Below are positions 35,554 to 62,476 of a DNA stretch of 64,000 nucleotides, piece by piece. Within the stretch, counting starts at the first letter, position 1. Each line of letters begins with the position of its first letter. Both the position numbers and the translations under genes were made by a program. The notes beneath the pieces are model-generated. The model did not search any database and was not told the DNA's origin. It worked only from the letters and a program-made list of their open reading frames with translations. The stretch spans positions 334,106 to 398,105 of the forward strand of contig CAVSWO010000002.1 in assembly GCA_963731735.1 (NCBI GenBank), written 5' to 3'. Origin of the DNA: Candidatus Kerfeldbacteria bacterium. GTDB taxonomy: Bacteria > Patescibacteriota > Patescibacteriia > SBBC01 > CAIJZX01.

Positions 35554-35640
35554 AGAAAATCCCGGTCAGTGTACCAGTCAGTTTGGCTTCGGTCAACCGC
35601 TATTCGTTGACCAGGGGATATGCTACATTGGCTTCACAAG

Positions 35641-35649
35641 TTATCCACA
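35641..35649 (+). promoter_or_regulatory. perfect DnaA box TTATCCACA in the rpmH-dnaA divergent region (a second, imperfect box TGTGGATTG at 35691)
   Basis: exact consensus 9-mer. Confidence 0.5.
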
Positions 35650-35744
35650 GTATATCAACTTTTTGGCTAATTTTAGCGTTTTTTCTGGCCTGTGGATTGT
35701 GCTATTATGGTCCTTGCGACTCCTTTGGCCTATTGAGTTTCTCA

Positions 35745-37112: not shown

Positions 37113-37359
37113 GTGGGGATGGGCTGTGGTTATGGCCTGTGAAAAAATTGTTTCTCGCGCGCACAGTCTGTGGATGTCGCGGGGAACGGCGGGCAAGGTT
37201 TTCCACGCGCGTCTTGCCTGAAAAAACTTTTCCCGATATAGCACTGTAAGTTCTCCGATTCTCCGTCCACTCCGGCCACACGTTTCCAGCTTCGCCTGAC
37301 GAGTCCGACTGAGTTTTCCCCCTCATCCACATGCCTTACTACTACCACTACAATACAAT
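37113..37359 (+). promoter_or_regulatory. candidate oriC: dnaA-dnaN intergenic region with several DnaA-box-like 9-mers (TGTGGTTAT, TGTGGATGT, TTTTCCACG, TCATCCACA) and an AT-rich 3' end
   Basis: position between dnaA and dnaN plus box-like motifs. Confidence 0.45.
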
Positions 37360-38463
37360 ATGAAATTTACTTGTACGCAGGAAAATTTATCCAAGGGACT
37401 CACCTTGGTGAGCCGTGCGGCTAGCCGCAACGTAACGTTGCCGATCCTCAACAACGTCTTGCTGGTGGCCGAACAAAACTCGATCCAGCTACAGACCACC
37501 AATCTAGAGTTGGCTGTGTCAGTAACCATTCGCGGAAAAATCGAATCCCCAGGGCGCTACACCGTGCAATCTCGTCTGCTGGCCGAGTTTATGAGTTTTT
37601 TGGAACACGAAAATATCACGCTCGAGCTCACGGACGCCGGTCTCGTGGTAACCTCGGGACACAGCCACACCACCATCAAAGGTCTGCCAGCCGATGAGTT
37701 CCCGGTTTTACCGAAGGTCAGCGACGGACAACAATTTAGCTTACCGGCCAACGAGCTGCAGCGAATGCTTGAGGGGGTGGTATTCGCAGCCGCCAATGAT
37801 GAATCACGGCCAGAAATTTCCGGCATTTATCTCCAGGCCCAAGAAAGCCGGATTACCGTGGCCGCGACCGACAGTTACCGGCTCGCTGAGCGCCACGGAA
37901 AGGCTCTGAGCGCCCCGACACAACCCGTTGCGGTTATCCTGCCATCTCGGACCGCCCAAGAGCTCCTCCGCAACCTTCCGGGAGACGCCACCGAGGTAAA
38001 AATTTCAGCCGGCGAGACCCAAATTTCGTTCCAGCTGGAAACAACGGAAATTGTATCTCGGCTAATAGAAGGCAGATACCCCGACTACCAAAACATTGTT
38101 CCCAAGCAGTTTTCGACAAAAATTACCGCTTCGCGCGACGCGCTGACCAGCAACATTCGGGCGGCCAGTTTATTTTGTAAGCCCGGGATTCATGATCTAA
38201 CGGTGCGGGTTGATGAGGGAAAAAAATCGTTGTTTCTGCAGGCCGCCAACACGCAAGTAGGCGAACACGAATCAAGCATGCCGGCCGAATATGAAGGGCA
38301 ACCACAAGAGGTGGTCTTCAATTACCGCTATTTACTCGACGGCCTCCAAAGCTTGCACGGGGAAGAAATCACTATCGAGCTGACCGACGCGCAATCCCCC
38401 GGCGTTCTTCGAGCCAGTGGCCAAGCGGACGACCTGTATTTATTGATGCCGATTCGACAATAA
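37360..38463 (+). CDS. dnaN: DNA polymerase III beta sliding clamp
   Basis: 367 aa, three-domain clamp pattern. Confidence 0.95.
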   Translation: MKFTCTQENLSKGLTLVSRAASRNVTLPILNNVLLVAEQNSIQLQTTNLELAVSVTIRGKIESPGRYTVQSRLLAEFMSFLEHENITLELTDAGLVVTSGHSHTTIKGLPADEFPVLPKVSDGQQFSLPANELQRMLEGVVFAAANDESRPEISGIYLQAQESRITVAATDSYRLAERHGKALSAPTQPVAVILPSRTAQELLRNLPGDATEVKISAGETQISFQLETTEIVSRLIEGRYPDYQNIVPKQFSTKITASRDALTSNIRAASLFCKPGIHDLTVRVDEGKKSLFLQAANTQVGEHESSMPAEYEGQPQEVVFNYRYLLDGLQSLHGEEITIELTDAQSPGVLRASGQADDLYLLMPIRQ

Positions 38464-38465
38464 CG

Positions 38466-38765
38466 ATGCAGTCGCTTCGCGAAGCGCTCGGCAGCGCCTC
38501 TCACGGCGCCACCAACTGGGACGCAGCCATCGTGGCCGCCACCCAAGACGCCATCCAACAAACGCTTCCCGACCAGGCGCGATATGCGCGCGCCACCAGC
38601 GTCCGGCACGGCCAGGTAACCGTGACGGTTTTTCATGGAGCCTTAGCGGGGCTGTTGTCGATGGAACACGAAAAAATCTGCCAAACCGCAAACCAGCTTC
38701 TAGCACAGCGCTTCCCGGAACGGCGACTGACGGTTGAGCGGTTAATTAGCCGCGTTACTTCGTAA
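38466..38765 (+). CDS. DUF721/DciA-like small protein
   Basis: W..AIVAAT...GQVTVTVFHGALAGLL...; position right after dnaN. Confidence 0.4.
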   Translation: MQSLREALGSASHGATNWDAAIVAATQDAIQQTLPDQARYARATSVRHGQVTVTVFHGALAGLLSMEHEKICQTANQLLAQRFPERRLTVERLISRVTS

Positions 38766-48271: not shown

Positions 48272-49927
48272 GTGAAATTTAGTATACTGAAGACCATGCA
48301 CACGCGCTGGGAAGGGGTTCAAGCATGGGTTCGGCAGGAATGGTGGTGGCTCTCGTACCTGCTGCTGTTCGCCGTGGTGTTTGTTGGGTTGCTGGGTCTC
48401 CAAGCGAGTCCAAAATTTGCCGATCCCGACTCGTTCTACCACGCCAAAATGGCCATCCTGATTCGTGATCAAGGGTTGATTAAGAATTTTCCATGGCTCG
48501 ACCTGACCGTGCTGGGCCAAGCCTACACCGATCAACACTTACTCTACCACGTGGCCCTAATACCGTTCGTGACCTGGCTGCCGCCGGTGATGGGGGTCAA
48601 ACTCGCGACGGTTTTTTTCGGAGCCAGCTTGGCGGTGGTAGTCTATTGGCTGATGCGTTCGTTTCAGGTTCGCTGGGCCTTCGGATTTGCTGTATTGCTA
48701 TTTCTAATCCGACCCTTTGATTTCCGGATTTCACTGGCCAAAGCCCCAAGCGTTTCATTAATGATCTTGTTGATTGGGCTGGGTTGGGCATTTCACTATC
48801 ATGTCAAACGCTTAGCGGTCCTGGCTTTCGTGTATGTCTGGACCTATGGAGGATTCTTGTTACTTTCCATCGGAACGATTGCGTACGCTATAGTTTCCGC
48901 CGTCAGCAACCGGCTCACCAAGCTTCAACCCCACCGCTGGGTCGGTAAAATTTTCGCCTTAGCGAGCCCACACGCACGGCTCGCGAAACCGCGGCACCTC
49001 AACACTTGGATAGTAGTGGCCGCGCTCGGCGGAACCCTGTTGGGCGTGGTGATCAATCCATATTTTCCGGCCAATCTTTCATTTTATCTCCAGCAGTTGA
49101 TAAACATTGGCGTCATAAATTTTCGAAATGTGATCGGCGTTGGCGGCGAATGGTATCCGTATGGTTTTGTGGAACTGATCGCCGACTCAGCCTTTGCCTC
49201 ACTGCTCTTACTGCTGGCCGGGGCGGCCGCGATTATACGCTGGCGACGCCCAAGTAAACAAACCATAACGCTTGGGCTGATGGCGCTCGGGTTCTTTATT
49301 TTAACGCTGAAATCCCGGCGCTATGTGGAATATTACGTGCCATTTGCGGTGCTCTTTAGCGCCTTTAGTCTGAATGATACTTTGGGCGGTTCGGCCGGTC
49401 GGGCTTGGACGCAAGAAGTTCGGCGTCTATTTTTACGCCCTCGTTGGTCGCGCTGGGTGTTTGGGATAACGATTGGAATTATTCTGTTCGGGGCGGGGTA
49501 TTTGGCGGCGCGTGACTACGCCGGCAATTGGCGCGACTTGCGCGGTGGCTTTACGGCTAATCAGGAACAGGCGGTTAGTCAGTGGTTAATCGATAATACC
49601 AACCCCGGTGACCGGGTTGTGCACTCCGACTGGGATGAATTTCCCCTGTTGTTTTATCACAACACGCATAACACCTATATTGTTGGCCTTGATCCGACCT
49701 TTCTCTACAAAGCCGACCAAGATCGCTATTGGGCCTGGGTCGACATCACGCTTGGAAAATATACTGGCGATGTGTATCAAGCCGTGACGCAGACGCTCGA
49801 TAGCAAATGGGTTTTAGTAACCGCCGATCATAGTGCCATGAACCGGTTGTTCAAGGACGATCGGCGCTTTCGCCTTCGATATCGGGACGACGAAGCCAGC
49901 GTCTATCAAGCCGTTGGACCCTCATGA
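48272..49927 (+). CDS. large polytopic membrane protein, possible GT-C-fold glycosyltransferase
   Basis: ~13 TM helices, DPDSFYH near N-terminus. Confidence 0.35.
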   Translation: MKFSILKTMHTRWEGVQAWVRQEWWWLSYLLLFAVVFVGLLGLQASPKFADPDSFYHAKMAILIRDQGLIKNFPWLDLTVLGQAYTDQHLLYHVALIPFVTWLPPVMGVKLATVFFGASLAVVVYWLMRSFQVRWAFGFAVLLFLIRPFDFRISLAKAPSVSLMILLIGLGWAFHYHVKRLAVLAFVYVWTYGGFLLLSIGTIAYAIVSAVSNRLTKLQPHRWVGKIFALASPHARLAKPRHLNTWIVVAALGGTLLGVVINPYFPANLSFYLQQLINIGVINFRNVIGVGGEWYPYGFVELIADSAFASLLLLLAGAAAIIRWRRPSKQTITLGLMALGFFILTLKSRRYVEYYVPFAVLFSAFSLNDTLGGSAGRAWTQEVRRLFLRPRWSRWVFGITIGIILFGAGYLAARDYAGNWRDLRGGFTANQEQAVSQWLIDNTNPGDRVVHSDWDEFPLLFYHNTHNTYIVGLDPTFLYKADQDRYWAWVDITLGKYTGDVYQAVTQTLDSKWVLVTADHSAMNRLFKDDRRFRLRYRDDEASVYQAVGPS

Positions 49928-51180
49928 TGCTAAACGCGGCGTTGTGGCTGATGGTCAGCCTGCTTGGCCCCCAGCTCATATCCAGCAGTTGGCTGTCACC
50001 GTATTTTACCAGTGGCAGCGGGACCTTGCTTATCTCGGTGTCTGCCCTGATCGGCGTTCTCGTCTTTTGGATACTGGCGGGCAGCCAACGTACAGATCGT
50101 GCTCGCCTCAACTTTATGGTGGTGGTTGTTTTTTCAGGGCTGATTATTGGCCTGGCCTTTATCCGGCAACTTGATCTGCGCGGACCCACCGGCCAACCGG
50201 TTGGGATTCACGATGGTGCGGTGCAAACCGAAGTCGCCGCCAGTTTTTTACTCGACGGCAAGAATCCGTACGCGGCTGATTATTCGAATACCAAGTACGC
50301 GATAATTAATCCGCCGATTCCCGGCGGTCCGGCCGTTAATGTCGTCTGGTCGCATTATATTTACCCGCCGTTGCCGTTTGTGCTCCAGGTTCCTTGGTCA
50401 GCCCTCGGTCGCTGGTTGCATTTTGTGGCTGATGCGCGGTGGTTAACCTTGGCGGCATTTGTGGTGACTGCCGGTATCCTGATCCAACCGGCCAAAGATT
50501 GGACCAAACGGACTACTGTCGCCATTCTGACTCTTGGCAACCCGTTGCTGTGGACCTTCGCGCTGGCCGGACAGAATGATTTTTATCCTGCTCTGGGCCT
50601 AGTCGGAGCGACGTTGGCCATACGCGCCAAGCGTTGGTGGTTGGCCGGCATCACTTTCGGTCTCGCACTGACTGCCAAACAAAGCGTCTGGATGCTTGTA
50701 CCGCTGGTAATTGTTTGGCTGTGGGCCCGCTACCGACGCCAAGCACTTGCCTGGAAACCAGTGCTTTGGGGGGCGGTAGCGAGCAGCCTGGCTATCATCG
50801 GCCCCTTCCTGCTTTGGGGCCCGACCCAGCTCTATGATGACATCATCCGATATGCCTCCGGGTCAATTCCTTTTTCCTATCCAATATCCGGTTCAACGCT
50901 GCTACAATATTTGCACGTGTCTGGGTTGCTAGCGTCGCCCTGGGCAATTGTTCCGACCGCCTGGTTTCAGCTGGCGGTCGGCGTCCCTCTTTTCTGGGTG
51001 CTGGGTAGGCGACTCTGGACCCAACCAACGGCCAGCCAATGGCTCCTAGCAGCTTCGATCTTAATGCTTGGGGTACTGCTGGTCAGCCGCTATGTAAATT
51101 TAAACTATTTTGTTACGCTGGAATTCCTGGTGCTGGCCGCCTGGATTCTTCAACCTCCCAACCCGCATGTTTCGACGTGA
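49924..51180 (+). CDS. polytopic membrane protein (paralog pair A, member 1), possible GT-C/DUF2029-like
   Basis: IHDGAVQTEVAASFLLDGKNPYAADYSNT shared with next gene. Confidence 0.35.
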   Translation: MMLNAALWLMVSLLGPQLISSSWLSPYFTSGSGTLLISVSALIGVLVFWILAGSQRTDRARLNFMVVVVFSGLIIGLAFIRQLDLRGPTGQPVGIHDGAVQTEVAASFLLDGKNPYAADYSNTKYAIINPPIPGGPAVNVVWSHYIYPPLPFVLQVPWSALGRWLHFVADARWLTLAAFVVTAGILIQPAKDWTKRTTVAILTLGNPLLWTFALAGQNDFYPALGLVGATLAIRAKRWWLAGITFGLALTAKQSVWMLVPLVIVWLWARYRRQALAWKPVLWGAVASSLAIIGPFLLWGPTQLYDDIIRYASGSIPFSYPISGSTLLQYLHVSGLLASPWAIVPTAWFQLAVGVPLFWVLGRRLWTQPTASQWLLAASILMLGVLLVSRYVNLNYFVTLEFLVLAAWILQPPNPHVST

Positions 51181-52447
51181 CGCAATTCTGCTCCTAATAT
51201 TCGGCTTGATCGGCAGCCGCCTGGCCTATGCGCCGGGGCTCGATTACTACCTGACCGGTGGGAGCCAAACATATTATTGGGGGCTGACGGCGCAGTGGTG
51301 GCTGACCGACATGGTCTCGATCGCTAGTTTTTTGTGGCTGACCTGGCTGGATCATCGAAGTCGGTCGTTGTATGAACGACATGCCACCAAAATCATCTGG
51401 GTCGCGAGTTTGCTTTTGATCGCGATCCCCTGGTTTCGTCACACGCTAATTCACCAACAGTCAGTTGAGGGATCATTGATGCATGACGGAACTCTCCAAA
51501 CTGAAGTCGCGGTGCGGGCACTGTGGCAAGGAAAAAATCCTTACCAACTCGATTATCAGGGCACCCTGTATGACTATGCCTTTAGTACCACCGCGCCAAT
51601 AGAGAATTCCGCGTTTACTCATTATGTCTATCCGCCAGCCTTAACCTACCTGGCTATGCCCGAGGTCTGGTTGAGCGACCTGAGTCATACTTGGCCGGAA
51701 CTGAATAGCCTGTATTTGGCGGCCCTGATTGTGACCGTCTTCCTCGTGACCCAAAGAATTTTGCCCGAACAAAAACGTTGGGTTATTCTCCTGGCCCTGG
51801 CCAATCCCCTGGTTACCTTGTATCCGCTTGCCGGCTACAATGATGTACTCGTGGTTAGCGCGCTGGCCCTGACCGCTCTCTTAGCGACGCGAAAACACTG
51901 GGGTTGGGCGGGGTGGTGGTATGCGCTGGCGCTGGGCCTGAAACAGGTCGCCTGGGTAACCGTACCGCTGTGGGCGATTGTCCAGTGGCGACGCTATCAG
52001 CAACACCCGGATGAGCGCCGGCAACTCCGCCGGGGTTGGTGGATCACACTCGGCGTCAGCGCCGCTCTCTATCTTCCATTTTTGATGTGGGACGCACGAT
52101 CATTGATTGATGACCTAATAATTTTCCCTTCCGGTAACCTGATTGGTTCCTATCCAATCGCGGGCAGCACCCTCTGGCAACTGAAAACTTTTTGGCAGGG
52201 AAGGACGCATGTTTGGGACGCCATCCCCTCCAGTTTAACAGCCGGTATCGCGCTGATCGCTTCGCTCGGATTTTTCGGCCGGCGCCTGTGGCGATCAAGC
52301 AGCGTGGTGCGCTGGTTCGGATTTTCAACCCTGACAATATTGTTTACCGGATTAACCCATCGATTTTTTCACGATAATTATTTATCGGTTTTGGTACTGA
52401 TGGGTATTTTGGCGTATGCGCTGGCTCTTCAACCTGAACAATCGTAG
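51167..52447 (+). CDS. polytopic membrane protein (paralog pair A, member 2)
   Basis: MHDGTLQTEVAVRALWQGKNPYQLDYQGT. Confidence 0.35.
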   Translation: MFRRDAILLLIFGLIGSRLAYAPGLDYYLTGGSQTYYWGLTAQWWLTDMVSIASFLWLTWLDHRSRSLYERHATKIIWVASLLLIAIPWFRHTLIHQQSVEGSLMHDGTLQTEVAVRALWQGKNPYQLDYQGTLYDYAFSTTAPIENSAFTHYVYPPALTYLAMPEVWLSDLSHTWPELNSLYLAALIVTVFLVTQRILPEQKRWVILLALANPLVTLYPLAGYNDVLVVSALALTALLATRKHWGWAGWWYALALGLKQVAWVTVPLWAIVQWRRYQQHPDERRQLRRGWWITLGVSAALYLPFLMWDARSLIDDLIIFPSGNLIGSYPIAGSTLWQLKTFWQGRTHVWDAIPSSLTAGIALIASLGFFGRRLWRSSSVVRWFGFSTLTILFTGLTHRFFHDNYLSVLVLMGILAYALALQPEQS

Positions 52448-54026
52448 ATTTTTCTGGCTGATCACCGGTCTGGCGATCCTCTTGTCGATCGGTCCGTGGT
52501 TGATCGGTTGGTCAATGCGCCCCGCCGGGTATGAATTTTTTGGCAACTCGGCTGTCAATCCCTGGGACCCGGCGGTCTACTATGGCTATATTGAACAAGG
52601 CCGGACGGGCGGAGTGTTCATGCACGATATCCTGACCAGTGAACCGTACGCGGCGACCCTATTTCAGCCCCTGTGGTGGTTACTAGGACGGCTGGCGGCC
52701 TGGGTACATTTGGCTACCCCCACCATCTTCGCCCTGGCCCGAACCGCGCTCGTCCCGCTGCTCGCGGGGGCGCTCTGGTGGGGCGCGCGGTGGGTATTTT
52801 CTGAACCGCGGCAGCAACGTTGGGCCTTCGGCCTGAGCCTGTTTTTGGGTGGCCTCGGGCCACTGGTGGCCCTGCTGGCCGGACGCGTTGAATTTACGCT
52901 CTCGCCTGACCTTTGGGTAACTGAAGCATTGCCGGTCTTGACGCTCATTAGCTCACCGCACTTTTTGATCGTTACAAGCGGCATTATTTTTACCCTGATT
53001 GGGATCGAACGGGCATATGCAAGCAATCAGTGGCGCTGGGTGGGCTGGGCCGGACTGGCCGCTTTGGTGACCCTAGCCATTCATCCCTTCCACGTGATTA
53101 CCTGGGTGCTGATCTGGGCGCTATTGACCACCTGGCGCGCATTCCAACGTGACCAGCATCCCTGGCGATACTTATTGATGTGGGTTAGCGTGTTAGCCAT
53201 TGCCAGCCCAGCCCTGGCCCTCTACGGTCTCCAGGCGATGTTTGACCCGCTCGTTATTGACCGGGCCATCCAAAACGTCAATTTGACCTGGCCACCCCTG
53301 CAAACATTCACGCTGCTAGGATTAGCGCTGCCTTTGATAGTGTTTGGGTGGACCCAGCGTCCGCGGAATGCGCGCTGGCAAAGCGTGCTGATTATGGCGG
53401 CTGCCTATGTAATTGCCATAGCGCTTCCAATATATTTTCAGCGCCGCCTAAGCCACGGGATGATGATCTTTTTTGCCTGGCTGGCGGTGCCGGGGGCAAT
53501 TCGGTTGGCTGATATTCTGAAACGCCAAGCCACCCCACTTCGTTGGGTTGGCGCCACCATCGCAATCTTTCTCGGACTATGGTCCTGGCTCTGGGTATCC
53601 GGGGTAAACATCAGTGCCTACGCCTACGATAAAACCATTGCGCCGGTACGGCAGTCTTACCTCTCACCTGAGTATCAGGCGCTATTGAGTACCATCAAAC
53701 AGTTCGACCATCGTTCGCAACCGCTGCTGGCGTCACTGACCGACAGCAAAGTTATTTCCGGCCTGACCGCACAAACCGTCTATGTTGCTCAAGCGGTTGA
53801 GACGGTTGACTATAGCCGGAAAGCACAACAGCTGGCGGACTTTTTTACGACTGCCAGTAAATCCACGCAACTCGCATTTGTTCAAAGGCACCATATTTGT
53901 CTGATACTCTATGGTCCACGTGAACAAACCTATGGTTCAACCTTTCAGCCCGCCACTTGGACAACCCTAACCCCGATTTGGCAGACGGATCAACGTACGC
54001 TTTATCGAACCGATCAATGTCAGTAA
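52416..54026 (+). CDS. polytopic membrane protein (paralog pair B, member 1)
   Basis: AVYYGYIEQGRTGG...FQPLWWLLG. Confidence 0.35.
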   Translation: MRWLFNLNNRRFFWLITGLAILLSIGPWLIGWSMRPAGYEFFGNSAVNPWDPAVYYGYIEQGRTGGVFMHDILTSEPYAATLFQPLWWLLGRLAAWVHLATPTIFALARTALVPLLAGALWWGARWVFSEPRQQRWAFGLSLFLGGLGPLVALLAGRVEFTLSPDLWVTEALPVLTLISSPHFLIVTSGIIFTLIGIERAYASNQWRWVGWAGLAALVTLAIHPFHVITWVLIWALLTTWRAFQRDQHPWRYLLMWVSVLAIASPALALYGLQAMFDPLVIDRAIQNVNLTWPPLQTFTLLGLALPLIVFGWTQRPRNARWQSVLIMAAAYVIAIALPIYFQRRLSHGMMIFFAWLAVPGAIRLADILKRQATPLRWVGATIAIFLGLWSWLWVSGVNISAYAYDKTIAPVRQSYLSPEYQALLSTIKQFDHRSQPLLASLTDSKVISGLTAQTVYVAQAVETVDYSRKAQQLADFFTTASKSTQLAFVQRHHICLILYGPREQTYGSTFQPATWTTLTPIWQTDQRTLYRTDQCQ

Positions 54027-55624
54027 CCAAAAAAATTTGGAGCATCATCGGTTTAGCGACCGGACTTTGGATACTTTCCGGCCTGCCGATATTGGTTGGC
54101 GCAATCACGACCGGGCCGAGTGAAGTTTTTGTCGGTCGCGTACCGGCGACCGCCGCCGATACTACCGCCTACTACTCAATGATTGAACAGGCCAAGCAGG
54201 GTCGGATTCTTTTTTCCAATCAGTTTACTAGCCTGACGCAGCACCCAACCATGTTTCACCCGCTGTGGTTGGTGACAGGATGGATCGCCTTTCTGCTGAA
54301 CCTCTCACCCGTTTGGGCTTACCAACTCGTACGTTGGCTGGCGGTAATCGGGTTTTTGGCTCTGCTATGGCGAATTCTTGAAGAAATTTTTTCCGAACGA
54401 CGGTGGCAATGGATTAGCCTACTGATGATTACCCTCAGCGGCGGGTTTGGCTGGCTGACCCAGGCGGATTTTCGGCGGTACGTTGATTTGAGCACCACGC
54501 CGGCAGACCTGTGGGTTGCCGAAAGCACCACCTTTCAATCCATCGGTCACTCGGCCCTCTTCATTGGATCACAAACACTGGTACTTTTTTTGATCTGGCA
54601 ATTGGCGAGCTGGTTACAAGGGCAAACCCGAGCCGGTTGGCGGTGGACGGGGCCGACCATCCTGCTGTTGGGCCTTATTCATCCGTATGATCTTGTCACC
54701 GTCGCGGCGGTAGCATTCGGATGGACCGGCTGGACGTATTTGCGGAGTGGTAAACCAAGCCGGCCGATTGGACAAGTCCTGCGCGCCGGACTCGGCTGGA
54801 TCGGGTGGGTGATCCCAGTTATCGTGTATTATCGATGGTGGGTCTTATCGGAACCGGCCATGGCTGGTTGGTTGGCACAGAACCTTGATTATACCAGCGC
54901 TCCCTACCTGACACTTCTTGGTTTCGGCCTGCTTGTTCCGCTAGCTACTTACGGCGCCATCCGATCATTGCGAGAGCGTCAAACGTTTCTGCATGCCTGT
55001 CTGGCTTGGGCGGTGATTGGCCTGCTGCTCATTTATGCGCCGCTATCGGTCCAGCGTCGCTTGCTCAACGGCCTGCAAATACCGTTCGCGCTGCTGGCAG
55101 CCTATGGGTTTTCCATGGCCTGGAAGCGTTGGAAAGAATGGCCACTGGTACGCAACGTGGCCGCCATTTGCTTAGCGACCGGACTGGTACTATCTCCGTT
55201 GGTGCTCCTGGGAGTTGATATTCGCTACGTTCTGCCCGGTGCGCGTCCCCCGTATCCGGTTCGCATTACTCGTGACACCTACGGCGCCTTTCAGTACATT
55301 CGCCAGCACAGTACTTTAACACAGGCTACCTGGGCTGAGTCCTGGGTAAGTAATAGTTTGACTGGTCTCGAGGGCCGAACTGTTGTTCAAGGCCACGCCC
55401 ATCAGACCATCGATTTTCAACAGCGTTTGCGGGACTGGCTAGTCTTTCGAACGCAGCTACTTAACCCGGATGAGCGCACCGCCATCCTGGATCGTCTAAA
55501 CGTCAAATTTTTACTCTGGCGCCCCCAAGATGCACTCCCAAACGGCTATCGTCCAAGCCAAGATCCGCGCTGGGTGACCCGCTATCAACGCGGTTCAGTT
55601 ACGCTGTTCGAGCGAATCAAGTGA
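54017..55624 (+). CDS. polytopic membrane protein (paralog pair B, member 2)
   Basis: TAYYSMIEQAKQGR...FHPLWLVTG. Confidence 0.35.
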   Translation: MSVTKKIWSIIGLATGLWILSGLPILVGAITTGPSEVFVGRVPATAADTTAYYSMIEQAKQGRILFSNQFTSLTQHPTMFHPLWLVTGWIAFLLNLSPVWAYQLVRWLAVIGFLALLWRILEEIFSERRWQWISLLMITLSGGFGWLTQADFRRYVDLSTTPADLWVAESTTFQSIGHSALFIGSQTLVLFLIWQLASWLQGQTRAGWRWTGPTILLLGLIHPYDLVTVAAVAFGWTGWTYLRSGKPSRPIGQVLRAGLGWIGWVIPVIVYYRWWVLSEPAMAGWLAQNLDYTSAPYLTLLGFGLLVPLATYGAIRSLRERQTFLHACLAWAVIGLLLIYAPLSVQRRLLNGLQIPFALLAAYGFSMAWKRWKEWPLVRNVAAICLATGLVLSPLVLLGVDIRYVLPGARPPYPVRITRDTYGAFQYIRQHSTLTQATWAESWVSNSLTGLEGRTVVQGHAHQTIDFQQRLRDWLVFRTQLLNPDERTAILDRLNVKFLLWRPQDALPNGYRPSQDPRWVTRYQRGSVTLFERIK

Positions 55625-57541
55625 AATGGCCGGCAATGTCTGCAGCACTTCGCGCTTGGTAAACTCGGGCGCGAACGTACGGAGCCGATTCAATTTAAGG
55701 TGGCCCACAAAGCGTACCAATGAAATTTTCAGACTGCCCGGGAGAGCGGTGTTAGGGATCGCTAGACGGTAAGTTGTTTGCCACTGTTCACCCGGTTTCC
55801 AGGTAAAACTTGGATTCCAGCCCTGACCGAGCAGCCGGGTGCTTTGCCATCGCGTCCGTCCGGACCGCTGCACGCTAAAGCGCAAAGCCAGCGGTTGATC
55901 AACTTGTTTCCCGGCTAGCCACTCTAACGGAACTTGATACTCCGTAAACCCATCGGGAACGGCAGTCTCAGCAACTGGCTGGACGGCCGTCGTGGCTGAC
56001 GTAACTGCTTCGGTAATTTTTGGAATCGCCCCTCCCGCCGACCCAAAAGATTGCGTGGGGACAAATGTATTTGATCCATTCCGGGTGTAAATTGCCACGC
56101 TATCTATCCAGGTTTGCAAATGCAACCCCTGGTCGGTCAAAAGCCGTGCGATTCGTTCCGACCCATCATATCCCTGGAAATCTGTTTCGCGATAGAGGAG
56201 TTGGTAGTGATAATATTGTTGCCAATCAATCACCGCCGCGTCAATATCGGTCGGCAAAACATACGGAGTGTCGGAGTATTGTCGCTTCCCAAGGTACACA
56301 TAATTAAGTGAATACAAGGTGGTTCGGTTGGCGAAGGTTGGCAGGTAATTAAAAGTCGTCAACACACGATCACTCGGTTGGATCATGGTTGCAACCTGCC
56401 GCAAAATTTTTGGGGCGGTAAACCCGCTATCTCCAACATTCGTCCACGGCCAGACCAGCGGTCCAAACGTAAAGTACGTATACAGCGGACCGACGATCGC
56501 CAAGGCCACTACCCCAACTCGCACCATCGATTGATCAAACAGCATCCAACCCGAATGTTGCCGGAGTCGCTTGATACCGTAAATCGTGGCCCAAGTTAAA
56601 AAGGGCAGGTACGGGATAACATAGTGCAGGCGTAAGATGGATTGCGCGTCCGCGCCAATGAGCATTAATTGCAGGTAGAGCAAGCTGACGGGTACCAAAT
56701 AGCGCCAGGCCGCCAAGGGCAACAACCCAAATCCGATCAAAAATCCGAAGGTCGTGACCCAGTTATTGGGGTGCAACAGGTGCTGCAAAAATACCAGCGG
56801 CCGCCGAAAAGGTGAGAGCAGGATCTCCGGCAGCGAGTGCCCCATCCAGCCATAAAAAGCCAAATATTTGTAGGCTCCCAAGGGCTGGGCCTGGCTAATG
56901 ACATATTGGGCCAGCCAGAAGTAAGCGACAGCCAGGATTGCCGGGACCGCCCACCAACGCCAGGTACGCTTTTGGATCAGGGCCAAACCGGCCCAACCTG
57001 CCAAGAGCAGCGGCATATCTTCCCGCACCAACAGAATGGCGATCAGGCTGGCAATCCACCATCCCCAGCGATGCATTTCGTAAGCCACAATGCTCCACAG
57101 TAAAAGTGGCAAAGCAAAGGCCAGGCCATGAAACTCGTACAGCGCGACATTATAAAATAATGGGTGAGCCAGAAAAACACTCGCCGCGAGCAAACCCACC
57201 CGGGTTGAGAAATGCCGTCGAAATAGGAGCATCACCGGAATGGCCGCACTGACCAACACCAAGGTTTGCGTCCATAAGATCAACAGGCTGCTCGACCACA
57301 GGCGATACAATCCCGCAAGCGGAAGTAGCCACAATTCTAGATGATCTCCTAAGTACGTTGGATCATGAATGGAATTTGCAAAGCCGTGGCCGTGGCCAAG
57401 TGACCACAAGGTTTGTTGATAGATGCCTAAATCCAGGCCATTATAACCAAAGGCCTGAAACTTCCACCACTGCAGGGCGCCAAGGACGATTGCCGTGAGT
57501 GTCATCAGGCCGCTGAGCCACCACCAATACTTCCGTTGCAT
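55595..57541 (-). CDS. DUF2079-family integral membrane protein
   Basis: FGYNGLDLGIYQQTLWSLGHGHG motif; ATG at 57541 with AGGATGG SD. Confidence 0.5.
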   Translation of the reverse strand: MQRKYWWWLSGLMTLTAIVLGALQWWKFQAFGYNGLDLGIYQQTLWSLGHGHGFANSIHDPTYLGDHLELWLLPLAGLYRLWSSSLLILWTQTLVLVSAAIPVMLLFRRHFSTRVGLLAASVFLAHPLFYNVALYEFHGLAFALPLLLWSIVAYEMHRWGWWIASLIAILLVREDMPLLLAGWAGLALIQKRTWRWWAVPAILAVAYFWLAQYVISQAQPLGAYKYLAFYGWMGHSLPEILLSPFRRPLVFLQHLLHPNNWVTTFGFLIGFGLLPLAAWRYLVPVSLLYLQLMLIGADAQSILRLHYVIPYLPFLTWATIYGIKRLRQHSGWMLFDQSMVRVGVVALAIVGPLYTYFTFGPLVWPWTNVGDSGFTAPKILRQVATMIQPSDRVLTTFNYLPTFANRTTLYSLNYVYLGKRQYSDTPYVLPTDIDAAVIDWQQYYHYQLLYRETDFQGYDGSERIARLLTDQGLHLQTWIDSVAIYTRNGSNTFVPTQSFGSAGGAIPKITEAVTSATTAVQPVAETAVPDGFTEYQVPLEWLAGKQVDQPLALRFSVQRSGRTRWQSTRLLGQGWNPSFTWKPGEQWQTTYRLAIPNTALPGSLKISLVRFVGHLKLNRLRTFAPEFTKREVLQTLPAISLDSLEQRN

Positions 57542-57584
57542 ATGCAACCATCCTAGCGAATTTCTCAATTCTGCGCTAATAACC

Positions 57585-57610
57585 AAACCCGCCGCAGAGG
57601 CGGCGGGTTT
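57585..57610 (-). terminator. rho-independent terminator after pilin gene 57639..58013 (CCCGCCGC-AGAG-GCGGCGGG + U tract)
   Basis: perfect 8-bp GC stem flanked by A/T runs. Confidence 0.55.
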
Positions 57611-57638: not shown

Positions 57639-58013
57639 CTAGGTCTGCGTGACGTTCGCCGTGGTGTTGGCCACGAAGATAACGACCGCCCAAGCCAGTA
57701 AGACGATAATCAAACCGATAACTGCAGCTGAAATAATCTTCTTGGCCTTATCAACTTTTTCTTCATTCCCACCAGCTGTCAGCCAGGTAAAGCCACCGAT
57801 GATGACCATAATGACCGCAATCAGGGCCAGTAAGCCAAGCACGAGCTGCAGAATGTTAATCACGGTTGTCTTCAGGTCGGCATCACCAAGACCGATTTGC
57901 GATCCAACAGATTCAACACTGAAGGTCGAAGCCGTCTGAGCATGAACCAACGCCGGCATCGCCATCGTGGCGATTGAACCCGCGAGTAACGCGTATTTCG
58001 TAAAGCGCTTCAT
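57639..58013 (-). CDS. TrbC/VirB2-like pilin-family protein
   Basis: Signal peptide ...ALVHA|QTASTF, helix-loop(GGNEEKVDKAKK)-helix, C-terminal VANTTANVTQT. Confidence 0.5.
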   Translation of the reverse strand: MKRFTKYALLAGSIATMAMPALVHAQTASTFSVESVGSQIGLGDADLKTTVINILQLVLGLLALIAVIMVIIGGFTWLTAGGNEEKVDKAKKIISAAVIGLIIVLLAWAVVIFVANTTANVTQT

Positions 58014-58058: not shown

Positions 58059-58442
58059 TTACGGAGTTGTCTGCGTGACGTTCGCCGTGGTGTTGGCCAC
58101 GAAGATGACGATTGCCCAGGCGAGCAAAATCACGATCAAGCCGATAACGGCCGCCGAGATAATTCGCTTCGCTTGTTCGACTCGGTCTTCATTTCCACCA
58201 GCCGTCAACCAGACAAATCCGGCGTAAATGATGAACACGACCGCAATCAGGGTCATGAAACCCAGAATCCACTGGATAATGTTAATCACGGTTGTCTTCA
58301 GGTCGGCATTGCCAAGACCGATCTGCTCACCAACAGATTCAACGCTAAAGGTTGAAGCTGTTTGTGCATGGACAGCCAGCGGAGCGGCCGCCATCGCAAA
58401 CACGCCCATTCCCATGGCGAGTGCTGTTAAACGTTTCTTCAT
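58059..58442 (-). CDS. TrbC/VirB2-like pilin-family protein (tandem paralog)
   Basis: Same architecture; 37-nt identical stretch with neighbouring gene at C-terminal coding end. Confidence 0.5.
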   Translation of the reverse strand: MKKRLTALAMGMGVFAMAAAPLAVHAQTASTFSVESVGEQIGLGNADLKTTVINIIQWILGFMTLIAVVFIIYAGFVWLTAGGNEDRVEQAKRIISAAVIGLIVILLAWAIVIFVANTTANVTQTTP

Positions 58443-58529: not shown

Positions 58530-58557
58530 ATTATACAAGAATCCCGTCAAAAGTCAA
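58530..58557 (-). promoter_or_regulatory. strong sigma70-like promoter TTGACT-N16-TGnTATAAT driving the tandem pilin genes
   Basis: revcomp AGTCAA at 58552-58557, ATTATA at 58530-58535 with extended -10 TG. Confidence 0.5.
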
Positions 58558-58606
58558 CGCGAGTTATCCTCACGTCGATTAATTTTGCCTAAAAACAGCC
58601 GAAAAC

Positions 58607-58954
58607 CTACCGTTGAAGCAGCCCCTCAAGGACAAATCGGATGATTCCCCAGCTAAGCAGGATGACTACCACGCCAATCGCGGCCCAGGCTAAGGTCTCT
58701 TTTGCCTGTTTGACCCGTTGGCTATTTCCCCCCGAAGTTAACATCATGACCCCGCCCCAGATAAACATCAGCGTCGCCAAAATAGCAATCACGCCCAAAA
58801 TATACCGAACTACCTGGCCAATTAAACAGGTGGCGGTATTACAGGCGATTGGATTAGTGATTTGGACGGCAGCCTGGACCGCGGGCGCGGCGGCCAGGAT
58901 CGTTATCGCGAGTAGCCCACCCGCCCATAAACTTCGAGACTTATGCATGGTCAT
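58607..58954 (-). CDS. TrbC/VirB2-like pilin-family protein (divergent paralog)
   Basis: MTMHKSRSLWAGGLLAITILAAAPAVQA signal, ...MMLTSGGNSQRVKQAKE... loop. Confidence 0.45.
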   Translation of the reverse strand: MTMHKSRSLWAGGLLAITILAAAPAVQAAVQITNPIACNTATCLIGQVVRYILGVIAILATLMFIWGGVMMLTSGGNSQRVKQAKETLAWAAIGVVVILLSWGIIRFVLEGLLQR

Positions 58955-58967
58955 AGTATACCACGAC

Positions 58968-60224
58968 TCAGTTTTTTGGTTGCTGGGAAAAATCGGTGAA
59001 GAGCGATTCATCACATTTGGTCGTGCACAGGTTGATTCCAAAACACGGTGAGGGTACGAATTGTGCCTCGGTTGGTAAAACACTTGAGCACCAGTACGGA
59101 CTGGCTTGTTCAAAACACGTTTTACTATTGTCCGGGTTAATACAAGAACCGCAAACTTGGCTGGCCTCGGGCTGTTGAAAGCAGGAACGGGAACCGCTGT
59201 AGAACTGGCTGTTTGGCAGTGAACCACACGATCGTTCAGACACGGAGTCCGCACAATAGAGCGGCTGGGTATTACCACTAGCATCGGTGCCGCGTACCAC
59301 GCAGCACCCCAGTGTGGTTCGGGACTTCTTGGCCGCTAGGTTGATATCAAACTGCGGCAGCAGCTTCTCAATCTTGTTAATGCGTTGGACGGTTGTGCTG
59401 GGCGAAGAACAGCTTTGACTGGAGTTCGATAAAATTAAATTTTCGGTCCGGGTATCAACCATGCCGGTGGCCGGCAGCAAGTTGGCAAGTTGAAAACGAC
59501 GGACACACGAGGCGGTGTTGTCACCATAACAACCCTTCCCGTCCAGACTGGATAAACACTCGCAGCCCTTAGCATCCAAAGCCTCTTGCAGCCGGGCGAT
59601 TGGTCCGGGCTGCGTGCCCGGATCGGCGCAACGAATTTCGATGGCGCTGTCGGTGTCAGCCGTGCAGCCATTATCCCACGTGGCGTGACAGTCAGTGCGT
59701 GTTTCCGTGCCGCCGGTGCCGCTGAAGGGTCGTTCCGAACTCGTCCCCCCGAAGACGGTCGCGATTGGACCGGAGAACGGATTTATGGCACGCGCGGTTG
59801 TGCCGGTAATCGCGGCCACCGCAAAGTTAATGGTGATGTAGGCGGTCATCGAAATGATGACCCCCACAATCGCGCCAATCACGATCCGTTTCCCATCTTC
59901 AATTTTTGAAGGCCGGCCGGCCGCGGTAATCCACTGCACTCCGCCCCAGATAATAAACAGCACGGCCAGAATGATAACAATGCTCTGACCCCATTGAGCT
60001 AGCACCACAAATTGCTGAAAAAATGAATCAATGGTACAGGGATTGGCGAATTGATCGACCATAACCGTTTTACCATCGCTCCCGATACTTGGCACACTCA
60101 CAATTTCTTGGTCGCACGGAATCAGCAGACCGGTGGCTTCGCTTTGCGCATGCGCCGCCGGTACCCAAACATTCAGCGCCAGGCTGACCGCCAAGACTAT
60201 CGCACCAACCAAGAAGGTCTTCAT
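58968..60224 (-). CDS. pilin-like N-terminal domain fused to a peptidoglycan-binding (PG_binding_1-like) and ~20-Cys C-terminal extension
   Basis: N-term signal + two helices with AAGRPSKIEDGKR loop; IARLQEALDAKGCECLSSLDGKGCYGDNTASCVRRFQLANLLPATGMVDTRTENLI; many Cys thereafter. Confidence 0.45.
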   Translation of the reverse strand: MKTFLVGAIVLAVSLALNVWVPAAHAQSEATGLLIPCDQEIVSVPSIGSDGKTVMVDQFANPCTIDSFFQQFVVLAQWGQSIVIILAVLFIIWGGVQWITAAGRPSKIEDGKRIVIGAIVGVIISMTAYITINFAVAAITGTTARAINPFSGPIATVFGGTSSERPFSGTGGTETRTDCHATWDNGCTADTDSAIEIRCADPGTQPGPIARLQEALDAKGCECLSSLDGKGCYGDNTASCVRRFQLANLLPATGMVDTRTENLILSNSSQSCSSPSTTVQRINKIEKLLPQFDINLAAKKSRTTLGCCVVRGTDASGNTQPLYCADSVSERSCGSLPNSQFYSGSRSCFQQPEASQVCGSCINPDNSKTCFEQASPYWCSSVLPTEAQFVPSPCFGINLCTTKCDESLFTDFSQQPKN

Positions 60225-61594
60225 AGACTGGCGGTTAACTGCTCACCGGCCAAACGCAGCGCATCTTCGAGCGTGGCCTTACCTTCCAGGACACTGGTCG
60301 AAAGATCACGGAGGTATCCCTCGGCCTTCTGGCCGCCGTGGCCATGGTACCAAGTTTTGGCCGTCAGGAGCTGAGCCGCAAAGGTCCCGAGCTCGGGATC
60401 ATCCTTCTGGGTGCTTAAAATACTCCGCAGAGCTGAAAGTTTCCCGGTCATTTGGAGATACACCGGGACAGTTGATTCATAGGTCACAAAATTCAGCAAG
60501 TTCCAAGCCTGGGTGCTGCGGCCCTGTAATTGACTCGACTTTGAAACCATTAGCATGTCGTAACGAGCCGCATCAATCACCCGGGCTTGGTTCGTCAGCC
60601 CGTCCCGATCACCATCAGTGCTCAAATGAAGCATCGGCGAGACCGCCCAGTTGACCGCACTCTTTTTTATGGTGGCCAGGTCAGCCAGTGTTCCAAAATA
60701 GTAGGCCAGCTTCCCGGCCAAAAAATCTTCGCGAGCGTTTGGTTGTTGCGCGTTCCAACTATACGCAACTTTTTTCGGATTCGCGAAACTCAACCAAAAA
60801 TCCATGGCCGTTTGCGCCGCTTCGGTCATATGGACCGAATCTTGATTCGGTTGAATGGCCGGCCATCCATTTTGTAACATTAACAGCGCCATTAAGTCGG
60901 CGGCGTAAGGGACATTGTCGACGCTCCCGAGCGCCACGCCGGCCTGGACAATGGACTGCTGATCATCGGCCACCGTCAATCCGTTGACGGTTAGCTGTTG
61001 CAGCAGTTCACCCCAAGTCTTAGCCGGCTCGAAGACTTTCGCGTTGTTCAATAAATCTTTGTTGCTGTAGAGGACAATCGTGTCCATTGATAAGGGCAAG
61101 CCCCAGACCTGTCCATCAATCACCGCGTCTTGCGCCACAGCGTCTACAAAAGTGTTTTTCAGACTCGTCACCGATGGGGCGGGCAGGCTTTGCTGCACAA
61201 TTTCGGTGCCATTCCGAAAGAGTCCGGTCCCGGTTTTGACAATCGGAACGCCGAGCTGCGCCGGCATCGGCGTCGCAAATTCCGTCATCTGGCCGATCCA
61301 GGTTTGTGGGACAAAGAAAAGGTCTGGGCCATTGCCTTGGGCCCAGGCACTGACTAATCGATCATAATATCCTTCGGCCGGCACGACTTGGTAGGTGACG
61401 GTGGCGTATGGGCGTTGGATTGCATATCGTTTGGCCAGGGCGGCAAAAGCCAATCGTTCATCGGCGGTTCCCCAGACGGTTAGCGTGACCGGACTGACGG
61501 TGGTCGGTTTGCTTTTTAAAACACCGCTGACCAGCAGCACAATCGGAATGGCCGGTACCAGGATAATGGCGACAATGATGAGAATGCGGCGCAT
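60221..61594 (-). CDS. ABC transporter substrate-binding protein (family 1, sugar-type) with N-terminal membrane anchor
   Basis: Length and composition typical of SBP_bac_1; no permease/ATPase nearby. Confidence 0.7.
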   Translation of the reverse strand: MRRILIIVAIILVPAIPIVLLVSGVLKSKPTTVSPVTLTVWGTADERLAFAALAKRYAIQRPYATVTYQVVPAEGYYDRLVSAWAQGNGPDLFFVPQTWIGQMTEFATPMPAQLGVPIVKTGTGLFRNGTEIVQQSLPAPSVTSLKNTFVDAVAQDAVIDGQVWGLPLSMDTIVLYSNKDLLNNAKVFEPAKTWGELLQQLTVNGLTVADDQQSIVQAGVALGSVDNVPYAADLMALLMLQNGWPAIQPNQDSVHMTEAAQTAMDFWLSFANPKKVAYSWNAQQPNAREDFLAGKLAYYFGTLADLATIKKSAVNWAVSPMLHLSTDGDRDGLTNQARVIDAARYDMLMVSKSSQLQGRSTQAWNLLNFVTYESTVPVYLQMTGKLSALRSILSTQKDDPELGTFAAQLLTAKTWYHGHGGQKAEGYLRDLSTSVLEGKATLEDALRLAGEQLTASL

Positions 61595-61597
61595 AGG

Positions 61598-62476
61598 TTA
61601 TCGATCGAGATAGTCTTTAATGTCTTGTTTGAGCTCTGGATGTTTCAGCGCAAAATGAATATTGGCCTTGAGATATTCACGTTTACTGCCGCAATCGAAA
61701 TACCGCCCTTTGATAATTCGGGCATAGACGGCTTTGCGTCGGGCCATATTGTTGACGGCGTCGGATAACTGTAATTCACCGCCGGTTCCGGCCGGCAGCC
61801 GTTCAATCCAATCGAAAATGTCCGGGGTTAAGACGTAGCGTCCGGTGACCGCAAACAGGGAAGGCGTTTTGGCCGGATCAGGCTTTTCAATCACACCGGC
61901 GACCGGGAAAGCCTGCTGCACAGTTTTTCCTTTCGGGCGCATCATGCCGTAATGCCGGACCATTTCACGCGCCACCTCCATCGTTCCGATCACGCTGGCG
62001 CCGGTCCGATTATAAGTTTCGATAAGCTGTCCGATGGCCGGTTGTCGGGATTCAATAATGTCATCACCAAATGAAAAGGCAAACGGCTCATTCCCGACTA
62101 TCTCTTTCGCCATATACAGCGCGTTGGCGTTCCCCAAAATTTTATTTTGGCGGACGTAAACGAATTTTGCGAGTTTTGAAATGCGATGAACCTCTTTGAG
62201 CTGTTTGAGTTTCTTTGATTCGCGTAACGAAAGCTCCAGTTCGGCCGAATAGTCAAAATGATCTTCAATTGCCCGCTTATTCCGTCCGGTGACGAAGATG
62301 ATCTCTTCTATCCCGGCCTTGGCCATCTCTTCGACAATGTATTGAATCACCGGCTTGTCGACGATTGGCAGCATTTCCTTCGGTTGGGCAATCGTGGCCG
62401 GCAAAAAACGGGTACCAAATCCTGCCACCGGGATTACTGCTTTGCGAATTTTTTGACGTTTTGTTTTTTTCGCCAT
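61598..62476 (-). CDS. galU: UTP--glucose-1-phosphate uridylyltransferase
   Basis: VIPVAGFGTRFLPATIAQPKEMLPIVDKPVIQY. Confidence 0.85.
   Translation of the reverse strand: MAKKTKRQKIRKAVIPVAGFGTRFLPATIAQPKEMLPIVDKPVIQYIVEEMAKAGIEEIIFVTGRNKRAIEDHFDYSAELELSLRESKKLKQLKEVHRISKLAKFVYVRQNKILGNANALYMAKEIVGNEPFAFSFGDDIIESRQPAIGQLIETYNRTGASVIGTMEVAREMVRHYGMMRPKGKTVQQAFPVAGVIEKPDPAKTPSLFAVTGRYVLTPDIFDWIERLPAGTGGELQLSDAVNNMARRKAVYARIIKGRYFDCGSKREYLKANIHFALKHPELKQDIKDYLDR

Follow-up and report, generated by a model that had tools for sequence, protein, structure and literature searches.

What the VirB2-like pilins of the Patescibacteria build, and how the product is fixed in an envelope that has a wall and lacks an outer membrane, are questions on which a gene of Candidatus Kerfeldbacteria, ultrasmall bacteria of groundwater, may bear. 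The gene is located in a 64,000-nucleotide stretch (assembly GCA_963731735.1, contig CAVSWO010000002.1, positions 334,106 to 398,105; the whole stretch is called the window here) and encodes a pilin-like hairpin, a peptidoglycan (PG)-binding domain and a cysteine-rich end in one chain, referred to as the fusion. A pilin-family protein that occurs lineage-wide, brings its own wall-binding domain and is encoded beside three plain pilins and a co-translated substrate-binding protein (SBP) is a candidate for the missing link. The open reading frame (ORF) fills exactly the interval given in a first-pass annotation of the window, 58968..60224 on the minus strand, with an ATG start and 418 amino acids.

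A VirB2-type hairpin with a putative peptidoglycan-binding ectodomain

From its N-terminus, the fusion consists of a signal peptide, a two-helix hairpin, a tether of ~35 amino acids, a PG_binding_1 domain and a beta-rich stretch formed by the last ~110 residues (Table 1). An AlphaFold2 model, calculated with an alignment of 21 homologues, has a mean predicted local distance difference test score (pLDDT) of 77 and shows, in this order, a signal helix (residues 2-19), a beta-hairpin (40-59), two helices (65-100 and 105-140) and a low-confidence segment (141-175). From residue ~180 to 410 the model is confident, with pLDDT values mostly between 80 and 95; this region comprises the PG-binding domain with its three helices, followed by a helix in the connector (276-288) and the beta-rich end. 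The connector as a whole (residues 267-304) is weakly conserved yet confidently modelled. A scan of the fusion against NCBIfam returned nothing above threshold.

The N-terminal part had been described as pilin-like at first reading, and the family searches agree. Residues 75-129 match the Pfam family PF18895 (T4SS_pilin; T4SS, type IV secretion system) at 33.4 bits against a gathering cut-off of 26.6, the same family is already annotated in 11 of the 21 homologues, and the N-terminal 140 residues align through the hairpin with the three small pilins of the same gene cassette, with the common motif I-x-G-G-x-x-W-L/I-T-A-G-G...K..I..A.IG. By these matches, the pilin type is VirB2/TrbC, that of type IV secretion. 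The signal peptide, MKTFLVGAIVLAVSLALNVWVPAAHA followed by QSE (ending VPAAHA/QSE, the slash marking the cleavage-type site), has equivalents in the small pilins with a V-H-A/Q or V-Q-A/A site. With a signal peptide in front of two helices that are joined by the basic loop AAGRPSKIEDGKR, the hairpin is predicted to have its two ends outside the cell. The hairpin is also the best-conserved segment of the fusion, with 54-65% identity compared with 40-46% for the whole protein, and contains the invariant residues G95, A101, G103, R104, G111, G117, G121, A128 and N133. Judged by its conservation, the constraint on the hairpin exceeds what a passive anchor needs.

VirB2/TrbC-like pilins usually consist of a single domain of about 70-130 amino acids. 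With 418 amino acids, 280 of them in an extra ectodomain, the fusion is far above this size. A literature search on PF18895, T4SS_pilin and VirB2 together with a peptidoglycan-binding domain retrieved no description of a pilin fused to a wall-binding domain, and the combination of a VirB2-like pilin with a PG-binding and an orphan disulfide-rich domain is a design so far undescribed for VirB2-type pilins.

Several other assignments were considered and rejected. A type IV pilus pilin is contradicted by the lack of a class III signal peptide and of a G-F-x-x-x-E prepilin-peptidase motif in the fusion, and no type IV pilin family was matched in Pfam at E<=1; as the protein is a VirB2-type pilin, comparisons with type IV pilus adhesins are not directly applicable. 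A VirB5-type minor pilin or tip adhesin found no counterpart either, with no VirB5-like family among the Pfam or NCBIfam matches at E<=1. Matches to holin-like hairpins were weak and below threshold, and the gene context is conserved and of housekeeping character. Finally, a cytoplasmic C-terminal part is ruled out by the signal peptide, the two helices, the PG-binding domain and the 20 paired cysteines.

In some relatives of the fusion and of the small pilins, the signal peptide is separated from the hairpin by an additional domain, namely an Ig-like domain in family protein P0016 (646 amino acids) and in pilin 1 of locus L006 (6814-7551), and a cysteine-rich domain in P0045 (540 amino acids). 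Both outside ends of the hairpin therefore accept grafts.

The PG_binding_1-like segment proposed in the first-pass annotation was recovered by sequence and by structure. PF01471 matches residues 209-262 at 28.2 bits (cut-off 23), covering positions 5-55 of the 57 in the profile, and is already annotated in 20 of the 21 homologues. In the model, the segment forms a bundle of three helices (208-218, 235-247 and 258-265) with pLDDT values above 90. When the full model was compared with the PDB using Foldseek, the sensible matches were exclusively PG-binding domains, with weak E-values of 0.07-0.4; they were led by CtpB (4c2c; prob 1.00, root mean square deviation 1.2 Å over 72 columns) and the N-domain of SleB (6tci; TMt 0.78) and included phage endolysins and L,D-transpeptidases. 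The PG-binding segment alone had no match among PDB sequences. The fusion thus has the three-helix PG_binding_1 fold in common with SleB, CtpB, the endolysins KZ144 and AP3 and L,D-transpeptidases. Unlike all of these, it has no recognisable catalytic domain; four additional cysteines staple its PG-binding domain, which is attached by a tether to a pilin hairpin.

The tether in front of this domain has pLDDT values below 50 at residues 141-150 and 152-175, despite the conserved motifs NPFxGPIAxVF and RPFSG. Local hidden Markov models (HMMs) of four parts of the fusion were run on 159 fetched proteins, and the matches of the linker model were confined to family members. Conserved short motifs inside a segment predicted to be disordered would suit a precursor that is cleaved at NPFxGPIAxVF/RPFSG into an ordinary pilin and a secreted wall-binding factor; C-terminal trimming is established for TrbC-type pilins (RP4 TrbC/TraF) and also occurs in VirB2. 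However, no TraF-like peptidase was seen in the window, and the motifs could equally be binding sites for a partner. Moreover, the fusion is kept in ~40 clusters with no split versions, so the linkage itself would be functional. Hence, we consider such processing very unlikely.

The C-terminal module and its cysteines

The last ~110 amino acids (C-module) were modelled by AlphaFold2 in isolation with a pLDDT of 83.8 and a predicted TM score of 0.75. A comparison of the C-module with the folds in the PDB gave no match (best E 1.4, TM about 0.2), and there was no fold match in BFVD. At the sequence level, a C-module profile found nothing among PDB sequences, Pfam searches at E<=10 with 20 C-modules gave scattered single matches and no family, and residues 140-418 had one match among PDB sequences, a chance hit to cytochrome c3 (E 0.54). 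The C-module is a conserved disulfide-rich domain without a relative in Pfam, PDB or BFVD. As the first-pass annotation required, the C-terminal region contains a recognisable fold, that of PG_binding_1, and is conserved as a whole in ~40 clusters; for the last ~110 amino acids, no known fold was obtained.

The cysteine-rich character of this region was borne out. The fusion contains 22 cysteines, two in the N-terminal ectodomain and 20 in residues 179-404, with none in the membrane helices or the loop between them; all 22 lie in segments predicted to be outside. In an alignment of 39 family representatives, each of the 22 columns is occupied by cysteine in 85-100% of the members, with 22 as the most frequent number per protein. 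Losses of cysteines are strictly pairwise: 223 and 240 in the same five proteins, 394 and 404 in the same four, and 37 and 63 in P0027, P0028 and P0041, while 307 and 348, 324 and 358, and 370 and 400 are also lost pairwise. The disulfide pairs were derived from these losses among relatives and not from the model. Such paired losses are a disulfide signature, by which six of eleven likely pairs can be assigned. Being located outside the membrane, highly conserved and lost in pairs, the cysteines therefore form disulfides.

PG_binding_1 is most often joined to wall hydrolases, and the non-family matches that we checked were all of this kind. The C-module could accordingly be imagined as a novel PG-cleaving domain that PG_binding_1 directs to the wall and that opens it, like VirB1, for the pilin assembly. 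No catalytic family (amidase, M23, lytic transglycosylase, YkuD, glucosaminidase) was found in the fusion by Pfam or NCBIfam, nor in the C-modules of the 20 members searched. Cys, Gly and Trp account for almost all invariant residues of the C-module, and the fact that all 22 cysteines can be paired leaves no obvious catalytic set of Cys, His, Glu or Asp. As the module is also similar to no hydrolase family or fold, a hydrolase appears highly improbable.

A fixed architecture in a conserved cassette

A word-indexed homologue search returned 21 full-length homologues with 33-50% identity. An exhaustive phmmer search with residues 140-418 against 1.84 billion representatives gave 709 matches; among the best 150 of these, ~40 proteins of ~400 amino acids cover the whole query, while all others cover the PG-binding segment only. 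The non-family matches checked are ordinary wall hydrolases with PG_binding_1 repeats (amidases, M23 peptidases, glucosaminidases and L,D-transpeptidases). According to the local HMMs, the PG-binding domain is present in 41 of 41 proteins with a C-module and the full hairpin in 39, always in the same order; the two members with an incomplete hairpin are N-truncated gene calls that begin inside helix 2. The tether model scored above threshold in 36 C-module proteins and was absent from P0030, P0036, P0046 and P0048. Neither the tether nor the C-module occurred in another context among the 159 fetched proteins. As far as can be judged from the best 150 of the 709 phmmer matches and the local HMMs on the 159 proteins, to which the restriction of the C-module to this architecture refers, the four-part architecture is fixed in ~40 sequence clusters.

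All named members belong to Candidatus Kerfeldbacteria, including both named homologues and two of the three species-representative contigs. The latter stem from a restrictive scan with a single peptide pattern, which found three loci and is a poor gauge of taxonomic spread. One contig labelled 'uncultured Gammaproteobacteria' (L010, CAYGGC010000004.1) holds a complete Kerfeldbacteria-type cassette with NTP-transferase, SBP, fusion, three pilins and DUF2079; it is probably mislabelled or derived from a contaminated bin. Searches of phage and plasmid collections with tblastn gave no match and thus no hint that the gene came from a mobile element.

In the window and in eight other loci, the genes follow the order GalU-like nucleotidyl transferase, SBP, fusion, three (once four) PF18895 pilins and DUF2079 membrane protein. 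The three small pilins (115-127 amino acids) all match PF18895 at 44-55 bits. The translational coupling of the fusion to the orphan SBP gene, pointed out at first reading, is real: the 4-nt ATGA overlap between the SBP stop and the fusion start, present in the window, recurs in each of five further loci. The SBP lacks cysteines and begins with a membrane helix, and its solved relatives in the PDB, which are distant (E 1e-8 to 1e-4), bind solely sugar, maltodextrin or sophoro-oligosaccharides. Scanning the large ORFs of the 64-kb window against Pfam revealed no ABC permease or ATPase, and there was none within ±10 kb in five related loci.

From the GalU-like gene through pilin 1, the intergenic gaps measure -4 to 13 nt. 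The spacer upstream of pilin 2 is 164 nt long and contains a promoter-like TTGACT-N16-TATAAT, and the equivalent spacer of five other loci contains the same GAGGATAAC motif and a promoter that matches 10-12 of 12 consensus positions. The GAGGATAAC box is located 5-7 nt upstream of the -35/-10 elements in all six loci (window, L001, L004, L005, L006 and L007). The combined pattern of box and promoter occurs once in the window, with 0 expected; the box may act as an UP-like element or bind a regulator. We infer two transcription units from this arrangement: the closely spaced genes as far as the fusion and pilin 1 would form the first, and pilins 2 and 3, behind the strong promoter, the second.

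Table 1. Features of the fusion gene and its cassette (positions in the window; aa, amino acids)
Feature	Position	Strand	Details
Fusion gene (whole)	58968..60224	-	418 aa, ATG start; based on ORF, Pfam PF18895/PF01471 and 21 full-length homologues
Sec-type signal peptide	60147..60224	-	aa 1-26, A-H-A/Q-S cleavage-type site; read from the sequence by eye; AlphaFold2 helix 2-19
N-terminal ectodomain	60027..60146	-	aa 27-66, beta-hairpin between C37 and C63; AlphaFold2 strands 40-47 and 53-59
VirB2/TrbC-like hairpin	59805..60026	-	aa 67-140, basic loop AAGRPSKIEDGKR; PF18895 at aa 75-129; AlphaFold2 helices 65-100 and 105-140
Tether and cap	59610..59804	-	aa 141-205; NPFxGPIAxVF and RPFSG in the low-confidence part 141-175, then invariant C179, C187 and C199
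PG_binding_1 domain	59427..59609	-	aa 206-266, three helices, four inserted Cys (221, 223, 232, 240); PF01471 and Foldseek
Connector	59313..59426	-	aa 267-304, helix 276-288, invariant C272; pLDDT about 89-93; 8-24% identity between orthologues
Orphan beta-rich, disulfide-rich module	58995..59312	-	aa 305-410; motif GCCVV...LYC.D.VS.R.C...C...CGxC...CF...WC...C...C...C
GalU-like nucleotidyl transferase	61598..62476	-	PF00483; 3 nt upstream of the SBP gene; first cassette gene in all loci examined
Orphan sugar-type SBP	60221..61594	-	SBP_bac_1 and SBP_bac_8; N-terminal membrane anchor; stop overlaps fusion start (ATGA)
Pilin 1	58607..58954	-	115 aa, C38-x4-C43 loop, 13 nt past the fusion stop; PF18895 54.8 bits; also approaches TrbC/VirB2
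Promoter-like element	58530..58571	-	GAGGATAAC-N6-TTGACT-N16-TATAAT, in front of pilin 2; agrees with the consensus at 11 of 12 positions
Pilin 2	58059..58442	-	127 aa; PF18895; 72% identical to pilin 3
Pilin 3	57639..58013	-	124 aa; PF18895; best-conserved cassette gene
Terminator-like hairpin	57589..57603	-	just past pilin 3; from a consensus scan alone, such sites not being enriched over shuffles in the region
DUF2079 polytopic membrane protein	55595..57586	-	PF09852 151.9 bits; downstream neighbour in all loci

The strictly conserved ATGA coupling to a sugar-type SBP, together with the DUF2079, GT87 and PMT glycosyltransferase-like membrane genes and the GalU-like enzyme that flank the cassette, might point to an envelope scaffold independent of any pilus. 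The PF18895 hairpins, as plain small membrane proteins, and the fusion would then form a wall-tethered platform that holds the SBP in the wall zone or aids glycan assembly with the neighbouring GT-C-type enzymes, for which the bindosome of Sulfolobus, built with a different pilin class, offers a loose comparison. T4SS machinery was found in no examined locus, and in about 40% of the VirB4-containing patescibacterial assemblies with VirB2-like pilins the pilin gene lies away from virB4 (PMC12102498), both of which would fit a scaffold. In contrast, the strong conservation of the small pilins (70-83%), their own strong promoter and the presence of multiple paralogues are typical of an abundant structural polymer, and the glycosyltransferase neighbours may merely mark a general envelope gene region. 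We therefore regard the scaffold as quite unlikely.

Proposed anchoring in the wall and possible contact with a host

The reading that we favour, though with a probability somewhat short of even, is that the fusion is a modular minor member of the four-gene VirB2-like pilin set, whose hairpin docks to the pilins and whose ectodomain binds peptidoglycan, most likely that of its own wall. After export by Sec and loss of the signal peptide, the protein would span the membrane with its two helices, so that the N- and C-terminal parts face outwards. The hairpin would dock it into the structure formed by the small pilins, either a membrane platform or a filament. Its C-terminal 240 amino acids would form a compact unit around PG_binding_1, held by ~10 of the 11 disulfides and presented on the flexible tether of ~35 residues. 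By binding peptidoglycan, most likely of its own wall, this ectodomain would couple pilin assembly to the wall in a monoderm without an outer-membrane core complex, with the fast-evolving orphan beta-module on the far side probably serving as a ligand-binding surface. Expression of the fusion and of pilin 1 would be low, along with that of the orphan sugar-binding protein to which the fusion is translationally coupled; pilins 2 and 3 would be the bulk subunits, made from their own strong promoter.

The analysis establishes the domain identities, the reasoning on topology, the disulfide scaffold and the conservation of architecture, cassette and promoter. Peptidoglycan binding, co-assembly with the pilins, the own rather than a host wall as the target and the expression levels are what we infer here. 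The own wall is the simplest target because the domain is tethered near the membrane of a peptidoglycan-making cell, as indicated by a class A penicillin-binding protein. This protein is encoded at 38755-41658, and the window also contains a VanW protein with PG_binding_4.

Wall anchoring of envelope machines via PG-binding domains recurs in other systems, as in ExeA of type II secretion (PMC4098917), TagL of type VI secretion (PMC8253398) and PorE of type IX secretion (PMC7192894). In ExeA/GspA, TagL and PorE, as proposed here for the fusion, a membrane-associated part with a PG-binding domain fixes a trans-envelope apparatus in the wall. These are diderm systems, however, in which the anchors are not pilin-like, lack a disulfide-rich module and, in TagL and PorE, mostly use OmpA-like domains. 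ExeA uses PF01471, the same Pfam family as the fusion.

Several observations weigh against the proposed wall-coupled pilin component. VirB4, VirB6, VirB3 or other T4SS machinery was found neither in the Pfam-scanned 64-kb window nor within ±10 kb in the related loci examined, so a link to a pilus-assembling machine is hypothetical. To our knowledge, VirB2-like filaments have not been observed in Patescibacteria to date. The proposed expression levels are read from promoter-like sequences. PG-binding domains of phage endolysins carry a D-G-(hydrophobic)2-G-x-x-T motif, for which the consensus of the fusion family is DGCFGxxT; the protein in the window has KGCYGDNT, with the usual D replaced by K. 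Finally, the C-module is the fastest-evolving structured part of the fusion, which suits an outward role in host contact at least as well as a wall anchor. Kerfeldbacteria are placed in the class ABY1, and some of their genomes contain VirB4 and some do not (supplementary table, PMC12102498).

The last of the points raised against a wall anchor is illustrated by the divergence within the cassette. The identity between orthologues is 40-46% for the fusion, 50-62% for the SBP, 58-69% for the GalU-like enzyme, and 56-74%, 63-70% and 70-83% for pilins 1, 2 and 3, respectively, which makes the fusion the fastest-evolving gene. Within the fusion, identity is intermediate in the PG-binding domain (44-49%) and falls to 33-40% in the C-module, to 28-35% in the N-terminal ectodomain and to 8-24% in the connector. 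The distal module and the N-terminal ectodomain thus diverge fast over a fixed disulfide scaffold, as a surface in contact with a host would.

The first-pass annotation had suggested an adhesin or host-interaction factor. This is one possible reading, and the rapid divergence of the distal module on its fixed disulfides keeps the idea of a host alive. The hairpin would in this case be part of a VirB2-like filament, at its tip or in its shaft, with the graft binding the wall or a surface glycan of a host bacterium, as a T4SS counterpart of PilB and PilC of Streptococcus sanguinis. A hairpin that accepts grafts at both ends (P0016, P0045, L006 pilin 1) would be suited to this, and the Patescibacteria studied to date are epibionts in which T4SS pilins have proved essential or strongly expressed (PMC10633639, PMC10936435). 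Adhesion by modular pilins is, moreover, an established design: like the fusion, S. sanguinis PilB (vWA) and PilC (lectin) have a binding module C-terminal to the pilin core and are encoded by a minor gene beside the major pilins of a monoderm (PMC8179133, PMC9934059). They are unrelated to it in pilin fold and in export route, having one N-terminal helix and a signal peptide of class III where the fusion has a VirB2-type hairpin and a Sec signal peptide, and their graft is of another nature. On the other side, a PG-binding domain would have to cross the cell's own wall without sticking to it, no assembly machinery is encoded nearby, and a 280-residue graft on a core of ~70 residues may fit into a helical VirB2-type lattice at the tip only. 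No host is known for Kerfeldbacteria. On balance, a pilus-borne adhesin seems unlikely.

A bolder version of the favoured wall-coupled pilin component is that the fusion is the first modular VirB2-like pilin, a subunit of a pilus or of a platform, in which a grafted PG-binding unit and a novel disulfide-knotted beta-domain work with a co-translated sugar-binding protein to couple pilin assembly to the own or a host wall. We regard this as rather doubtful. If true, it would give a testable handle on how ultrasmall monoderms anchor or aim VirB2-like pilins. The significance of the fusion in general is limited by the narrow taxonomic range (Kerfeldbacteria) and the lack of a cultured member.

VirB2-like pilin arrays are widespread in Patescibacteria (PMC12102498), and such pilins are essential in Southlakia epibionticum (PMC10633639), the one genetically tractable species. 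In parasitic Paceibacteria, the genes for T4SS pilins and for proteins with PG-binding domains rank among those with the highest expression in the set of function-unknown genes that was examined (PMC10936435). With arrays such as that of Southlakia, the set described here has in common the Pfam family (PF18895/PF04956), tandem divergent pilins with signal peptide and hairpin, a chromosomal location and an ultrasmall monoderm cell. In contrast to Southlakia-type arrays, one member of the Kerfeldbacteria set bears a 280-residue PG-binding, disulfide-rich ectodomain, and the array is not adjacent to virB4/virB6 but belongs to a cassette of fixed order that includes DUF2079 and an orphan SBP. A pilin gene lies near virB4 in 1,135 of 1,948 VirB4-containing assemblies with VirB2-like pilins (PMC12102498). 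Pilins 2 and 3 of the window are also more similar to each other (72% identity) than the maximum of 54% reported for patescibacterial arrays.

The window itself is chromosomal and mostly of housekeeping content, with a 16S rRNA gene, two tRNAs, dnaA, dnaN, yidC, TyrRS, LeuRS, RuvB, RuvC and glycogen synthases, in addition to several GT-C-like membrane proteins. A PilB-type T2SSE ATPase is encoded at 30465-32144 (-), ~3.4 kb from dnaA-dnaN (35583-38463, +). As judged by these genes, type IV pilus machinery is encoded near the replication origin region of this genome.

Five large polytopic membrane proteins are encoded at 48272-55624 (+), two of them GT87-like and three without a Pfam match; together with DUF2079 they are conserved beside the pilin cassette elsewhere, and in the other loci GT87-like and unnamed polytopic membrane proteins are found on the opposite strand. 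Pilins 2 and 3 end in N-T-T-A-N-V-T, which comprises two N-x-T sequons; N-V-T is kept in most orthologues and absent from L001 (L004-L007 were also compared). As the surroundings of the cassette comprise a GalU-like enzyme and GT-C-type membrane proteins (DUF2079 and GT87, with PMT in loci other than the window), glycosylation of the pilins is conceivable.

A fifth VirB2-like pilin paralogue is encoded at 254-589 (+), just upstream of the 16S rRNA gene, with a tentative start codon. It is very close in sequence to pilins 2 and 3 (QTASTFSIESVG...VANTTANVTQP), has a different loop between the helices and is not preceded by the GAGGATAAC promoter box.

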